Part shown: in pieces, positions 34,257-57,112 of the stretch
How positions within the stretch are numbered: the first letter of the stretch is position 1
Layout of the letters: each line of letters opens with the position of its first letter
Virus record (IMG/VR): IMGVR_UViG_3300031993_000012
Span: 64,001-128,000 of that record
Length of the DNA: 64,000 nucleotides
DNA from: a virus
Taxonomy: Duplodnaviria; Caudoviricetes
Direction: 5' to 3' (one strand)
The notes under the pieces: generated by a model
What the model was told of the DNA's origin: nothing
The model's input: only the letters and a program-made list of their open reading frames with translations
Database searches by the model: none
Program-made: the position numbers and the translations under genes

Positions 34257-34260
34257 TTCT

Positions 34261-34279
34261 GCCGGGGTATATCCCCGGC
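34261..34279 (+). terminator. hairpin/terminator
   Basis: gccgggg-tatat-ccccggc. Confidence 0.6.
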
Positions 34280-34298
34280 GATTATTCTTAAATTCTAC

Positions 34299-34318
34299 AT
34301 ATATATCATTCTATTGAA
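34299..34318 (+). promoter_or_regulatory. early-type promoter motif
   Basis: ATATATATCATT-CTAT-TGAA. Confidence 0.55.
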
Positions 34319-34518
34319 GCAACTCAGGAATATTTTACGGAGGTGATTCCATGGAAGATATTATCATTATCAACGATAGTACGACTCCCCAGTCAGAAAT
34401 CGAAAATAATATCAAAGTATGGTTAGGATAAAACCATACAATGATTAATGAAAAAACTTCACAATTCATTGAGTAATTGTTCATACGTTATAAACCCATT
34501 CCAACCTGAGAATGCTTC
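34316..34518 (+). ncRNA. structured peptide-coding RNA element, copy 1
   Basis: terminal stem gaagca-a-ctcagg / cctgag-aa-tgcttc; 52-nt block nearly identical to 51474..51524. Confidence 0.6.
34351..34431 (+). CDS. 26-aa peptide MEDIIIINDSTTPQSEIENNIKVWLG
   Basis: SD GGAGGTG; 19/26 identical to 51378..51458 with many synonymous changes. Confidence 0.8.
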   Translation: MEDIIIINDSTTPQSEIENNIKVWLG

Positions 34519-34578: not shown

Positions 34579-34938
34579 GTGAAAGTGATTATGAAAGATC
34601 CATCATATAAGAAAGTGGATCCAAACACACGTCGTTGTATTGATTTAGGTATCAAAAAATTACAACAGAGAATCGACAGTTACCTAGTTCAAGAACGACA
34701 AATCAATCAGGTTTTCAATGATGATACATTAATTCATGATATCATTTGTGGTTTCTATGTATACAAGTGCAGAGCCAATAATAATCAGCTCCGTTTGTTA
34801 TATACAATGAATAATAACAAACTGATTATTATATCACACTTCATCAAGAAAACCGATGAGGCTGGACATAATCAAGCATACATTCCTCACTTTAAGAAAG
34901 TATGCGAAACGTTAAACCAGAAAGGAATAAGATCATGA
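34579..34938 (+). CDS. RelE/ParE-superfamily (HigB/Gp49-like) toxin-like protein
   Basis: FYVYKCRANNNQLRLLYTMNNNKLIIISHFIKK fits the RelE-fold C-terminal pattern; basic, 119 aa; SD AAGGAGG, GTG start. Confidence 0.55.
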   Translation: MKVIMKDPSYKKVDPNTRRCIDLGIKKLQQRIDSYLVQERQINQVFNDDTLIHDIICGFYVYKCRANNNQLRLLYTMNNNKLIIISHFIKKTDEAGHNQAYIPHFKKVCETLNQKGIRS

Positions 34939-40112: not shown

Positions 40113-42218
40113 TTACTTTACAAGACCTGCGTTGCTGTCAGGAACGAGAGCAGTATTCTTAGCAATGATTCTTGCATCAACACCCTGAACAGTGATCATC
40201 TGATACTGTGAAGATGTTGTGATAAGTACTGCCTGTCCGCCAGGTGAGTTCGGATCCTGGTAACCAGCATTCTCAGGTGAGTTAGTAAGGTGACGAGCGA
40301 ATCTGAGGTGCTTATGTGTGATGTGGAACTTGTCCATCGGATAAGCACAGATCTTCCAGAAGTATTCCTTTGACTTCATGCCAGGCTTGTAGTCAGGATC
40401 ACTTGTCTGGTATGCATCAATGAGTGTGTATGCAGGAACACGGTTAGAAGCAACAACACGAATCGGAACTGACTCATCTGTCATTACACCGAATGCATGA
40501 TTCATCTTTACGCCGCCGATTTCTGTACTCTGCTGAGTTGTCCATGTAACGAACTTCTCAAGAAGACGTGCACTCTTCGGGTTGCTGTAGATAACGAAGC
40601 CGAGGTTGTCGAGCTTACCCTTATCGCAGAGCTCATAGATAGTAGAAGCAATTGCGTTATGAAGTGCATTTGTTCTGTACTCGAAGGGATCGCCAGCGAA
40701 TGAAGGCGAGATGAATGTAGGATCGAAGTCAACGTACTCTGTATGAGTATATGAATCGAGATTCCAGATATTGCTGTCAGCACCATCCCACTCGTTGAAC
40801 TCTTCGTCGAGCTTCTCAAGGATGTACTGATCCTCGAACATCTCCTGAGCTGTTACGAGCTCCTGAACGAGTCTGTTGTAGAGGTTGAAGTTAAGTGAAG
40901 CATTAGCCTCAGCAAAGTCTTCAACTGTGAATGGAAGCTGGAATCTGCATCCGTCGCCGATTGTCCACTTTCTGATCTCAGGATACTCACGGAAGCCGAT
41001 TGTTCTGAGGTTTGTTTCATTTGAAATATAGCCGTTGATATAGAATCCCTTGATTGTGCCACATGCAGAAGCATTGATAAAGCCCTTAACGAAATCAACA
41101 ACACCGGAGAGTCTGTCATCGAATGATGTAGTTCTACCAGTAGCCTTGTTCGTAGTAGGATCAACAACAGTAAGAACCTGTGTAGCATCGATACCACCGT
41201 TCAGGAATACACCGCCGTTCTGGATATCGATCTGGATACCGCCGCGAGGCAGTTTGATCTTAGCATTTGTGATTGCAGCTTCCTGTGAGTAGTATGTGTT
41301 AGCAGCCCATGTAGGAGCAGTACCACCGCCAGCAGGTACCTGAGTATACTGATCTGTACCAGAATCGTATGTGTAGTAATTTGTGTAATCAGTTGCCCAG
41401 TCTGCAGGCTCTTCAGTTGTAAGAACATAAGAAGCAGGAACATCAGCAACAATGTACTTGATGTGGAAATCGTAAGACAGTCTTGTTCTTGGAGTCTTTA
41501 CGAAGTTTACAGGATGATTGCCGTTCTCATCAAGGAGGTACTGAGCATCGAGAAGCTGGAGCTTCTTACCAGGTGCAGCAGCGATAGCAGCAAGAGTAAT
41601 AGGTGTTGTGTCATCCAGACGGAGACCCTTACCTGTGTACCAAAGCTTCTTCCAAAGCTCAGTATCGAAGTAGATTCTAGGAGTCTCGTACTCTTCACCA
41701 GTCTCATTGTTTACGAGATACTTTGTGAAGATACGCTGCTCGATGTTTGTTGAACCAGCTGTAGCAACCGGAATAATATCTTTACCGAGGAACTTGATGA
41801 ACTGCTTAACGAGAGCAGGGAAATCGAGAGTTGAGAGCGGAAGGTATGTTGATACGTTGTAACTTTCCTGAATGAAGTTAGTAACAGCGCCATCCCAAGC
41901 TTGTGAGAGTTCGTCAGCAACTGACTCAAGGTGCATACGCTCTACTTCACTCTCAGTAGGATAGTTTCTGATTTCGTCGCAGATAGGCTCAAGATACAGA
42001 GTCTTGTATTCCTGCATGATCTCAGGGTGATCAAGCATCTTTCTGAAATCAGTTGTAACATTGATGTCATGTGTGTCCTTCATTGTATTTACAGCAGTTT
42101 CCAGATAAGTATCAGCCTTTTCTCTGATTTCCATAAGATCTGAATCAGATGCATTATTAATCATAGACTGCTGTTCCTGGAACCAAGAACCACGATGGTT
42201 TGCACGTGCATATGCCAT
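40113..42218 (-). CDS. major capsid protein (precursor)
   Basis: ~700 aa, last gene of the prohead-protease operon, strongly biased codon usage, FIQES cleavage-type site near residue 120. Confidence 0.7.
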   Translation of the reverse strand: MAYARANHRGSWFQEQQSMINNASDSDLMEIREKADTYLETAVNTMKDTHDINVTTDFRKMLDHPEIMQEYKTLYLEPICDEIRNYPTESEVERMHLESVADELSQAWDGAVTNFIQESYNVSTYLPLSTLDFPALVKQFIKFLGKDIIPVATAGSTNIEQRIFTKYLVNNETGEEYETPRIYFDTELWKKLWYTGKGLRLDDTTPITLAAIAAAPGKKLQLLDAQYLLDENGNHPVNFVKTPRTRLSYDFHIKYIVADVPASYVLTTEEPADWATDYTNYYTYDSGTDQYTQVPAGGGTAPTWAANTYYSQEAAITNAKIKLPRGGIQIDIQNGGVFLNGGIDATQVLTVVDPTTNKATGRTTSFDDRLSGVVDFVKGFINASACGTIKGFYINGYISNETNLRTIGFREYPEIRKWTIGDGCRFQLPFTVEDFAEANASLNFNLYNRLVQELVTAQEMFEDQYILEKLDEEFNEWDGADSNIWNLDSYTHTEYVDFDPTFISPSFAGDPFEYRTNALHNAIASTIYELCDKGKLDNLGFVIYSNPKSARLLEKFVTWTTQQSTEIGGVKMNHAFGVMTDESVPIRVVASNRVPAYTLIDAYQTSDPDYKPGMKSKEYFWKICAYPMDKFHITHKHLRFARHLTNSPENAGYQDPNSPGGQAVLITTSSQYQMITVQGVDARIIAKNTALVPDSNAGLVK

Positions 42219-42290
42219 AATTAAATACACTCCTTATTGTATATTTGGTGATTTTTTATACTCACCATAGTATTTATTTAGAAAGCAACC

Positions 42291-46647: not shown

Positions 46648-47769
46648 ATGGTTAAAGAACGTTTATGGGTAAAATTAGAATACCCGGATGTAATGAAAGA
46701 CACTTATATGATATCGAATCTTGGTGAAATCAAGAAGATTGATATCGATAAAGTCATCGATTTGTATCACGCTAATAATGGTGTTGAATATGCATTGTTA
46801 TTTGTTGATCCAGATGCACGTAGACGCAACTGTACTAAATATCCGAAACCGAAGAAATTATTCAGATTAGAATTATTAGTAGCTGTGACATTTGTTGAAC
46901 GTGATATGTCATTGGTCGACAAACCTTTGGACATAATGCATATCAATGGTGATAGTAGAGATTGTTCAGCAACGAATCTCAAATGGATTGAAGATGTTGA
47001 AGAATGGCGTGATATTAAGATCAAAGGTGTTATACCAAATGCATACCAAGTTAGCAGCTACGGCAGAATCAGAAACACCGCAAATGGTGAAGTGTTGAAT
47101 ACCAGATATGGTGGAGATGGTTACAGATTGATCTCATTGAAACTTACCGAAAGAACCGCAGCTGGATATGATTGGAAACCATTTAGAATTAATCGTTTGG
47201 TTGCAGAAACATGGTATGGTGAAAATCCGGGAAAAGATGTTAATCATATCGATAGTGATCATTGTAATGATCATTGGAAGAATGTTGAATTTACGACACG
47301 CTCAGAAAACCTTCGTCACGCAGTAGCGGCTGGTAATGTTTCAGCATTACCCGACGATGTTCTCCAGGATATATTTGAAGATTTAAAAAAGACAAATTCC
47401 CCGACTGAGACATACAGAAACATGTGTGAGATCCATCCGATATTACGTAAATATTCAATAGATAATGTGCAAGCTGTGAAACGTGGTTTCTATAATCATC
47501 GTCTTGGATTACCCGATGATTTCAGATTAGCTCCATGTAGACAAACCATTAGTGTTGAAGAAATGGATTTGATTCGTGATAAGTTAATTGAATTCAATGG
47601 TAGTGTCTCGCAGGCATTCAACAGTATTGATACTGAAGAACATCCAAGAATAAAATTCGATACCGTAAAAGATGTGAAACGTCGTCGTTCAGCATATGAG
47701 AAATCAAATAAGTACACGACTGATGATTTTGAACGTATAAGATTGATGTCTCCTAGAGGGAATAATTAA
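46648..47769 (+). CDS. HNH homing endonuclease with tandem NUMOD4-HNH units
   Basis: YMISNLGEIK..HINGDSRDCSATNLKW and EEWRDI..YQVSSYGRIR..VNHIDSDHCNDHWKNVEFTTRSEN..HA. Confidence 0.85.
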   Translation: MVKERLWVKLEYPDVMKDTYMISNLGEIKKIDIDKVIDLYHANNGVEYALLFVDPDARRRNCTKYPKPKKLFRLELLVAVTFVERDMSLVDKPLDIMHINGDSRDCSATNLKWIEDVEEWRDIKIKGVIPNAYQVSSYGRIRNTANGEVLNTRYGGDGYRLISLKLTERTAAGYDWKPFRINRLVAETWYGENPGKDVNHIDSDHCNDHWKNVEFTTRSENLRHAVAAGNVSALPDDVLQDIFEDLKKTNSPTETYRNMCEIHPILRKYSIDNVQAVKRGFYNHRLGLPDDFRLAPCRQTISVEEMDLIRDKLIEFNGSVSQAFNSIDTEEHPRIKFDTVKDVKRRRSAYEKSNKYTTDDFERIRLMSPRGNN

Positions 47770-47804: not shown

Positions 47805-47898
47805 ATTCTATTATTCTTATATTCGATATTTATATTATTTAGGTGGACAAATGAAAACACATTTGTTACACACTAATATTGAAAGGAAAGAAGTTAAA

Positions 47899-50093: not shown

Positions 50094-50110
50094 CGGGCGC
50101 TTCTTTTTTG
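50078..50110 (+). terminator. intrinsic terminator
   Basis: aagaagcgctc-ataac-gggcgcttc followed by T6. Confidence 0.7.
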
Positions 50111-50127
50111 CTATTTTTTGACATTCT

Positions 50128-50147
50128 ACATATATTATTCTTATGGA
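50128..50147 (+). promoter_or_regulatory. early-type promoter motif
   Basis: ACATATATTATT-CTTA-TGGA. Confidence 0.5.
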
Positions 50148-50193
50148 TAGATACGAAAGTATTTATTACATTATAAACGAAAGGATGTTGTTT

Positions 50194-51297: not shown

Positions 51298-51321
51298 TGT
51301 GCCCCCGTAATCGGGGGCATA
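51298..51321 (+). terminator. GC-rich hairpin
   Basis: tgtgccccc-gtaatc-gggggcata. Confidence 0.55.
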
Positions 51322-51335
51322 CACATATTAACACC

Positions 51336-51541
51336 ATATGAAAGATAGACAAATATTTTTTGAAAGGAAGTGTTTCCATGGAAGAAATCATTATAATTAA
51401 TGATTCTACTACTTCGCCAGAAGAGTTAGAAGATAACATCCGTGTGTGGTTAGGTTAACCAATGAACGGATACGAAAAAACTTCACAATTCATTGAGAAT
51501 TGGTCATACGTTATAAACCCATTCATGTCTATCTTTCATAT
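51336..51541 (+). ncRNA. structured peptide-coding RNA element, copy 2
   Basis: perfect 16-bp terminal inverted repeat atatgaaagatagaca / tgtctatctttcatat; conserved 3' block. Confidence 0.6.
51378..51458 (+). CDS. 26-aa peptide MEEIIIINDSTTSPEELEDNIRVWLG
   Basis: SD AAAGGAAG; paralog of 34351..34431. Confidence 0.8.
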   Translation: MEEIIIINDSTTSPEELEDNIRVWLG

Positions 51542-51568
51542 ATAAATGAGTTGTGCTTTTTCGTATTA

Positions 51569-57061: not shown

Positions 57062-57092
57062 TTTCAAACCATCTAGAATTCTTAAATTCCAT

Positions 57093-57112
57093 ATATATAT
57101 TATTAATATGAA
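57093..57112 (+). promoter_or_regulatory. early-type promoter motif
   Basis: ATATATATTATT-AATA-TGAA. Confidence 0.5.

Follow-up and report, generated by a model that had tools for sequence, protein, structure and literature searches.

A cassette of about 200 nucleotides (nt), present twice in a 64,000-nt stretch of DNA from a large uncultured phage, is the subject of this analysis. The stretch, hereafter the window and always meant at its full length, covers positions 64,001 to 128,000 of the IMG/VR virus record IMGVR_UViG_3300031993_000012, a phage record of 182 kilobases (kb) designated G000 below. The cassette is a conserved, previously undescribed micro-gene module that falls into no known family; the wider kind, small early phage genes in promoter-terminator cassettes, is already known. 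On balance, we lean towards seeing in it a self-contained immediate-early micro-gene of a family of rumen phages with genomes of ~250 kb, in which a 26-residue peptide would be the effector, while a helix joining the two ends of the unit (P1) would be a 5'-end hairpin. To judge from its substitution pattern, the 26-codon open reading frame (ORF) is a real gene, it is clearly under purifying selection, has several paralogues and is set in a conserved RNA architecture.

Layout of the cassette and its occurrence in relatives

Both of the ~200-nt cassettes that a sequence-only reading of the window had described are present, together with all four of the features attributed to them. From 5' to 3', each unit consists of a 5' arm, a ribosome-binding site, the 26-codon ORF, a hairpin around the stop codon (P2), a 52-nt non-coding block with a small hairpin (P3), and a 3' arm complementary to the first, the two arms forming P1. 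That the cassettes are structured is borne out by the folding of the whole units (z of -3.3 for copy 1 and -5.8 for copy 2), which none of 200 shuffles folded as well as. A search of the whole 182-kb record returned these two copies and no further ones, while each half of the block occurs twice in the window, against about zero expected, and likewise twice in the whole record. The parts of the two cassettes and of their immediate surroundings are as follows (L033, L037 and G001 being relatives introduced below):

34260..34280, +, G+C-rich terminator hairpin of the upstream gene of 164 amino acids (aa), from the terminator scan; it forms a composite terminator-promoter motif with the next promoter, in the same layout at the orthologous sites of relatives
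34278..34317, +, early-type promoter motif of 40 nt before copy 1, at 41 bits with a weight matrix from 21 genomic sites
34316..34328, +, 5' arm of P1 in copy 1, pairing with 34505-34518
34339..34343, +, Shine-Dalgarno site of copy 1, 7 nt upstream of the start codon and retained in all aligned lineages
34351..34431, +, micro-gene of copy 1, 26 codons plus stop, encoding an acidic peptide, from the peptide profile and the ratio of non-synonymous to synonymous rates (dN/dS) against L033
34411..34445, +, P2 of copy 1, enclosing the last codons and the stop codon, with a local fold of -11.2 kcal/mol
34450..34501, +, non-coding block of copy 1, holding P3 (34461-34480) with its conserved 7-nt loop (34467-34473)
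34505..34518, +, 3' arm of P1 in copy 1, pairing with 34316-34328
51300..51319, +, terminator stem of the upstream 82-aa gene, parted from its T-run by the insertion of copy 2, as compared with G001
51336..51351, +, 5' arm of P1 in copy 2, a perfect stem of 16 base pairs (bp) with 51526-51541
51378..51458, +, micro-gene of copy 2, 26 codons plus stop, nucleotide-identical in L037
51438..51471, +, P2 of copy 2 over the stop codon, with a local fold of -13.3 kcal/mol
51474..51524, +, non-coding block of copy 2, holding P3 (51486-51502) with the same 7-nt loop (51491-51497)
51526..51541, +, 3' arm of P1 in copy 2, pairing with 51336..51351

Among relatives, the cassette occurs in five lineages and at three genomic sites, with one to two copies per genome, and several of the contigs are labelled as belonging to cattle-rumen or ruminant-gut assembly projects. 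In what follows, c1 and c2 denote the two window copies, c3 the site-3 type (copy 3), c4 the copy of L033 and c5 that of L044 and L047. The three sites are occupied as listed here:

Site 1, behind the 164-aa gene: copy 1; L030 and L031 (near-identical to copy 1); L033 (c4); L044 and L047 (c5)
Site 2, behind the 82-aa gene: copy 2; L037, L038 and L039
Site 3, before the 254-aa gene: G001; L020, L021, L026 and L048 (c3)

Occupancy thus varies between genomes: sites 1 and 2 are filled in the window genome, sites 1 and 3 in a contig assigned to a Spirochaetaceae metagenome-assembled genome (MAG), site 3 only in G001 (an IMG/VR phage found via the flanking proteins, with good synteny and 59–70% protein identity to the record), and none in G002, a more distant relative that is 96% complete. 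The second of these, CAYYEN010000014.1 (18.9 kb), carries two cassettes (L047 and L048) and is binned in a MAG labelled uncultured Spirochaetaceae, which is either an artefact of binning or a hint of the host. The full genome size of ~250 kb follows from the completeness of 68% that CheckV assigns to the record, and an identical 82-aa flanking protein is also found on a contig of 254 kb. For the flanking 164-aa protein by itself, 44 clusters were retrieved, on contigs of up to 261 kb. The record carries the gene for a major head protein; a 705-aa protein at 40113-42230 (-) matches the PHROG major head protein and is 93% identical in G001, far above the surrounding early genes. Searches of GenBank phages (megablast, blastn and tblastn) gave no near relative or match, exact halves of the block retrieved nothing from IMG/VR, and peptide patterns retrieved G001 as their sole match there. 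Nothing was found for the neighbouring genes when they were compared with PHROGs and Pfam.

The peptide gene, the non-coding block and the three helices

The peptides of the two copies share 19 of their 26 residues, as had been noted from the sequence, and their codons differ by 11 synonymous and 7 non-synonymous changes, the former claim of differing codons extending to serines drawn from both serine codon families. Selection on the peptide, which had been proposed on these grounds, is indeed detectable and is purifying: between copy 1 and its orthologue in L033, there are six synonymous changes and no amino-acid change (dN of 0, dS of 0.61). Between paralogues, synonymous sites are saturated, and the only dN/dS that can be computed is 0.15 (copy 2 versus copy 3). 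Variants of the ORF within lineages show mostly synonymous or conservative changes, while the replacements between lineages are all conservative (acidic for acidic residues, Lys for Arg, interchange of Val, Ile and Leu). The invariant residues are an Ile-Ile-Ile-Asn-Asp-Ser-Thr stretch, Glu18, an Asn-Ile pair and the Trp-Leu near the end. The ORF is an open frame without any other start, a strong ribosome-binding site stands 7 nt before its start codon, and a peptide profile detects it in five lineages. It is the count of six synonymous to zero non-synonymous changes, the profile matches across lineages and the conservative nature of the replacements that lead us to treat the ORF as a gene.

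With five acidic residues, one basic residue and a sole hydrophobic run of four residues, the peptide is acidic and devoid of a membrane helix, so that the earlier judgement that it is not a type I toxin stands. Genes of 26 codons lie below the cut-off of gene callers, which makes this peptide family invisible in annotated phage genomes. A second ORF, or a read-through of the stop codon into the block, was rejected, despite the fact that in both window copies the block continues the reading frame past the stop codon, with a start codon between stop and block. L037 and L038 have each lost this start codon, by different mutations; in copy 3, the ORF is followed by two stop codons and no start; and the block of copy 1 contains an extra base that cuts the frame by an in-frame stop and that is seen in three independent assemblies. 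Because of these losses and interruptions, and because the changes in P3 are compensatory rather than codon-driven, we conclude that the block holds no second ORF.

The blocks of the two window copies (34450-34501 and 51474-51524) are one indel and one substitution apart, exactly as previously described. The block was further said to exceed the ORF in conservation, which is true of the two copies of G000 (47/48 versus 53/78 identical positions) but fails when copy 1 is compared with its orthologues. Relative to c5, copy 1 is identical at 13/13 and 14/14 positions of the arms, over 94% of the ORF and over 77% of the block; relative to c4, the corresponding values are 11/13 and 12/14, 92% and 79%. 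Moreover, the site-2 orthologues L037 and L038 have the copy-1 states in their block (the extra base and the adjacent substitution), and the two blocks of the contig with a site-1 and a site-3 copy are of different types. Since the orthologues of copy 1 keep its arms and ORF yet have a diverged block, and since L037 and L038 carry copy-1 states, the near-identity of the window blocks is best explained by a putative short patch of recombination or conversion between the copies in that genome lineage. The greater conservation of the block than of coding DNA had been the main argument for a separate function of the RNA, and it is withdrawn here, the effect being attributable to recombination between copies within one lineage. 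Within the block, conservation across all lineages is limited to the shape of the P3 stem, the P3 loop and a few short runs beside them.

The helices were compared using a structural alignment of ten sequences, which was built from coordinates by script and submitted to RNAalifold for a consensus, sub-regions being also folded singly; the scripted alignment replaced one computed with MAFFT, in which the arms were out of register. The terminal stems (34316-34328 with 34505-34518; 51336-51351 with 51526-51541) had been reported to keep their structure without their sequence, and across lineages their shape is indeed kept while their sequence is unrelated. P1 has 13–16 pairs in every lineage, with two to three pair types at nearly every column, and the identity of its arms between sites is at chance level (3–4/13). 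In copy 3, which represents a third sequence type, it is a perfect 15-bp stem, and the cassette folds with a z of -6.6. At site 1, the arms of copy 1 are identical in L030, L031 and L044; between c1 and c4, a 1x2 internal loop becomes a pair via changes on both sides, while one pair turns into G-U and another is lost.

The hairpin across the last codons and the stop codon, seen beforehand in both window copies, recurs in every lineage (-9 to -13.5 kcal/mol), in differing registers and with compensatory changes. The constant feature of this P2 helix is the pairing of the Trp codon with a complementary triplet past the stop, from which the stem extends outward in c1, c3, c4 and c5 and inward in c2. 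Two of its pairs are swapped on both sides between c1/c4 and c3, and its outer stem in c2 changes along with a Lys-to-Arg codon change. P3 is a stem of 6–7 bp, with one internal mismatch in c3, c4 and c5, and at three of its pairs, both bases are exchanged between the type of c1, c2, c4 and c5 and that of c3; its 7-nt loop, by comparison, is identical in all five lineages. A small hairpin over the ribosome-binding site of the window copies is not conserved in relatives. Finally, the whole window yields zero Rfam matches at gathering thresholds, and the lack of an assignable family also extends to the E-value mode, in which the three cassette loci return a single row, an Enterococcus small-RNA model on the opposite strand at 25 bits (versus a gathering score of 123). 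No tRNA was found in the window.

Promoter setting and genomic sites

A 40-nt promoter-like motif is present in 21 strong copies in the record, and the matrix derived from them separates cleanly from background, only ~21 positions in 182 kb reaching its training range. The motif is termed early by analogy and from its position; examples inside the window are 34278-34317, 47807-47846, 50109-50148 and 57072-57111. Copy 1 does begin at such a motif, as first noticed from the sequence, since its 5' arm lies at the 3' edge of the motif, which scores 41 bits (median 42). The same promoter-then-arm layout is found in copies 3, 4 and 5, and the site-1 promoter is conserved in G001, L033, L044 and L036. 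A sigma-70 scan returned no site at the motif, whose 40-nt consensus has no TTGACA-like element. A promoter inside the block was rejected, there being neither a sigma-70-type site nor a match to the phage motif there.

Most copies of the motif are preceded by a G+C-rich (GGGG/CCCC-type) terminator hairpin, including those of copies 1 and 3, and immediately behind most of them, at the presumed transcription start, stands a hairpin whose sequence varies and whose loop spans 3 to 37 nt. Such a short hairpin is present in the window at site 3, the place at which G001 carries the cassette in its 15-bp stem. Site 1 bears short hairpins in G001 and L032, and in L036 a 13-bp stem that encloses the cassette leader and the ribosome-binding site, without ORF, P2 or P3. 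On this comparison of sites, P1 corresponds to the hairpin with which transcripts of this class generally begin, the gene of the cassette being nested in its loop. The end-to-end pairing noted in the cassette is not specific to it: behind most promoters of the class, a short 5' hairpin occupies this position. Because L036 retains the stem after gene loss, P1 appears to have a use of its own. The gene may have been inserted into such hairpins or may have been repeatedly lost by internal deletion, and deletion would be the better fit, given that L036 retains the stem, the leader and the ribosome-binding site. Remnants of the cassette in G001 and L036 are marginal (p ~0.03 each, uncorrected) and partly amount to the ribosome-binding site. 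As a genomic design, this means that a transcript-initial hairpin can hold a whole gene in its loop, the gene coming and going between relatives while the hairpin remains.

The setting of copy 2 is different. Relative to G001, copy 2 with ~10–15 nt on each side is located between the terminator stem of the upstream 82-aa gene and the T-run of that terminator; in G001, the stem is directly followed by the T-run and then by the end of a convergent 732-aa gene, with no cassette, whereas the T-run of the window comes after the cassette, near 51551-51555. The terminator of the 82-aa gene has probably been disabled by this insertion, and we infer that transcription of copy 2 would come from the promoter at ~50116 by read-through. 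Copy 2, which has no co-oriented gene downstream, is nonetheless intact in at least four assemblies. The antisense sequence of copy 2 would form part of the 3' untranslated portion of the transcript of the convergent 732-aa gene.

In T4-type phages, cassettes known as PeSL combine early promoter and stem-loop motifs that flank orphan genes (PMC2839356, PMC4122927), and these cassettes mediate the shuffling of the genes that they flank (PMC2839356). The units of the rumen phages are similar in that a composite of a G+C-rich terminator hairpin and an early-type promoter precedes small orphan genes in plastic regions, and in that genes are gained, lost and replaced at the motifs between close relatives, with evidence of recombination between copies. 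They differ in their promoter, which is the 40-nt motif and not a sigma-70 consensus, and in the additional hairpin at the transcript start, which in the cassette encloses the whole micro-gene. Terminator, promoter and variable hairpin can be read as a PeSL-like regulatory grammar to which a transcript-initial hairpin has been added. Stabilising hairpins at the 5' end of bacterial and phage messengers are exemplified by the ompA leader and by ermC. Here too, the helix is within a few nt of the presumed transcription start, is found behind most promoters of the class and has no conserved sequence; however, the loop of the cassette is 175 nt long and holds a gene, and the stabilising effect is presumed.

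Further traces of plasticity were observed near these promoters. Between 48497 and 51045, the window has ~2.5 kb of extra small genes, including the promoter at ~50116, where G001 (66703-67112) has 400 nt, which points to a hyperplastic early region. Just upstream of the terminator-promoter unit of site 3 lies an HNH/NUMOD4 homing-endonuclease gene (46648-47769, +) that is absent there in G001, the genome with a cassette behind that promoter. Lastly, in L035 (2668-3098), an unrelated sequence of 430 nt that lacks the peptide fills the slot behind the site-1 promoter, and MurB-like and POTRA-domain genes come next; this may reflect a chimeric contig or a slot open to cargo of quite another kind.

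Explanations for the cassette and its toxin-like neighbour

Under the micro-gene model that we favour, transcription would begin at the early-type promoter, and the first bases of the RNA would form the 5' arm of P1. The loop of P1 would hold the ribosome-binding site, the 26-codon ORF, P2 around the stop codon and P3 with its fixed 7-nt loop, after which the 3' arm would close the unit and the next genes of the operon would follow. Early in infection, the peptide would target a host or phage protein in trans; its gene stands first behind an early-type promoter of large uncultured rumen phages, in a position that usually harbours host-takeover and anti-defence functions. By analogy with the short 5' hairpins behind most promoters of the class, and because of the known role of 5' stem-loops in bacterial mRNA decay, P1 would protect the 5' end, while also tying together the ends of the mini-messenger. 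P2 and P3 would belong to the architecture of the messenger, P3 being probably the recognition site of some factor. Such a molecule is comparable to hok-type messengers, with a short ORF on a compact RNA of ~200 nt and a 5' end that pairs ~190 nt downstream (13–16 bp in five lineages). Unlike in that type, the peptide of the cassette is acidic and without a membrane helix, and its ribosome-binding site is free of the terminal helix. A scan confined to sigma-70-type sites and the phage's own motif revealed no promoter-like site directing antisense transcription into the cassette.

Several observations weigh against the micro-gene model. There is no promoter motif at copy 2 (best score -25), so that its expression would need read-through from upstream, and no relatives of the peptide were found outside this phage group (IMG/VR; 185,579 species genomes). 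In L037, P1 has suffered an uncompensated 2-nt deletion in its 3' arm, which leaves two 7-bp stems and a bulge, and in some close variants of copy 3 the outer portion of P1 is interrupted by one or two mismatches. The invariance of the P3 loop is unexplained by the model. Finally, the plus and minus strands fold with equal energy, which makes the selected strand, as well as action as RNA versus DNA, indistinguishable by this measure; the reading as plus-strand RNA rests for that reason on the promoter, the ribosome-binding site and the orientation of the ORF.

Three other explanations have to be confronted with these data. At face value, c1, c3, c4 and c5, each placed behind a promoter and ahead of the first gene of an operon, have the location of a cis-acting leader, in which translation of the mini-ORF or pausing within P2 would refold the downstream RNA and tune the following genes, by attenuation or nascent-peptide arrest. 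The stop codon within a conserved hairpin, the run of isoleucine codons followed by threonine codons, and an alternative pairing between the ORF and the P3-loop region that the consensus fold permits are all consistent with such a leader. However, this pairing shows no covariation and has a central mismatch in c1, c4 and c5, the terminator scan detected no plus-strand hairpin with a T-run between the ORF and the next gene, and the conservative replacements along the whole peptide point to a folded or binding product. A purely cis-regulatory role is also disfavoured because copy 2 is maintained intact without a co-oriented gene downstream, and we consider a leader function quite unlikely. Its more specific form, an isoleucine-sensing attenuator, was rejected, the first isoleucine being replaced by alanine or valine in variants and no T-run terminator being found after P3 or P1.

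The solitary position of copy 2 would fit an RNA that acts in trans, as in the dual-function RNA that the sequence-only reading had advanced. Selection on the peptide and the existence of the helices uphold part of that proposal, while a separate function of the RNA is possible, its chief support being P3 with a 7-nt loop that is invariant in five lineages on a covarying stem. A processed RNA of ~200 nt would then use the P3 loop to pair with a host or phage RNA (kissing or seed loop) or to decoy an RNA-binding protein, and this loop holds a pyrimidine-U-N-purine turn motif, which we take to be typical of antisense recognition loops. SgrS/SgrT, RNAIII/delta-haemolysin and SR1/SR1P are known small RNAs with a dual function, and the cassette is like them in combining, on one putative small RNA, a conserved short ORF with a structured non-coding part that is likewise conserved, but unlike them in that this non-coding part is only moderately conserved, save for one hairpin. 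No target can be named, the 7-mer being too short to search with, hairpins with the P3 loop occur elsewhere in the genome at chance level only, and beyond its loop and stem the block diverges between orthologues as fast as the ORF or faster. For these reasons, we hold an additional action of the RNA in trans to be rather doubtful.

The presence or absence of the unit between close relatives at three sites, along with the insertion of copy 2 between a terminator stem and its T-run, would also be expected of a small mobile DNA element of the miniature inverted-repeat transposable element type, the stem then being a pair of terminal inverted repeats. Yet ends recognised by a transposase must be conserved, whereas the repeats are unrelated between sites (3–4/13). 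Moreover, no direct target duplications flank the units, no transposase is nearby, there are only one or two copies per genome, and the arms at orthologous promoters resemble the short hairpins of the empty sites. A mobile element of this kind is thus highly improbable.

As for the target of the peptide, the gene right behind copy 1 offers a lead rather than a finding. Its position is the following:

34579..34938, +, 119-aa gene right behind copy 1, with a RelE/HigB-like predicted fold; context and possible partner, outside the cassette

The AlphaFold model of the 119-aa protein (predicted local distance difference test, pLDDT, of 87, from 14 homologues) has as its best Foldseek and VIA-align matches almost exclusively RelE, HigB, YoeB, YafQ and ParE toxins, at moderate scores (Z of 5–7.3, the top match covering 95 residues at a root-mean-square deviation of 3.5; Foldseek probability of at most 0.95, E of at least 0.01). 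Pfam gives sub-threshold Gp49 and ParE-like matches at the same place in two orthologues. Type II antitoxins such as RelB, HigA and PaaA2 have C-terminal tails that bind the toxin, and the peptide is comparable to such a tail as a short acidic segment with a predicted strand-plus-helix, copy 1 being directly upstream of the gene with the toxin-like predicted fold. It differs from these antitoxins in having no DNA-binding domain, and most copies are not beside a toxin-like gene.

The peptide might be a minimal inhibitor of RelE/ParE-fold toxins, akin to an acidic antitoxin tail standing alone, with the phage's own 119-aa protein or host abortive-infection toxins as target. This reading refines the peptide-effector model and does not exclude it. 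Besides the predicted fold and the weak domain matches, it is consistent with the lack of a canonical antitoxin gene beside the 119-aa gene in the phage (the bacterial homologue of which has a 67-aa gene next to it), with the joint presence of toxin-like gene and peptide in G000 and G001 and their joint absence from the 96%-complete G002, and with a peptide that is acidic, early and found in diverged paralogues. Nevertheless, the co-occurrence comes from only three related genomes, the structural matches are moderate (Z of ~7), and adjacency is confined to copy 1: outside it, the two genes are separated by other genes (as in L033 and L044) or by at least 10 kb, copies 2 and 3 being kilobases away. 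In the phage contigs L041 and L042, moreover, the toxin-like gene has a homologue, but no peptide lies within 10 kb of it. We therefore regard an inhibitor of this kind as unlikely on present evidence.

A fuller version, which is distinctly improbable in our estimation, is that the 26-residue peptides are free-standing inhibitors of RelE/ParE-fold toxins made in the first minutes of infection from a self-protecting, end-tied messenger. Several diverged paralogues per genome would allow several toxins to be countered (the RelE-like protein of the phage itself and host abortive-infection modules), and the P3 loop would be a control handle for a phage or host factor. Should a RelE-type toxin or some other host factor prove to be inhibited by the peptide, the latter would rank with the smallest known phage effectors and would also be a useful small binding module. 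The bacterial homologue mentioned above is 48% identical to the 119-aa protein and lies on a mobile-element contig (L043, 7398-7733), near relaxase and recombinase genes and ahead of the 67-aa gene.

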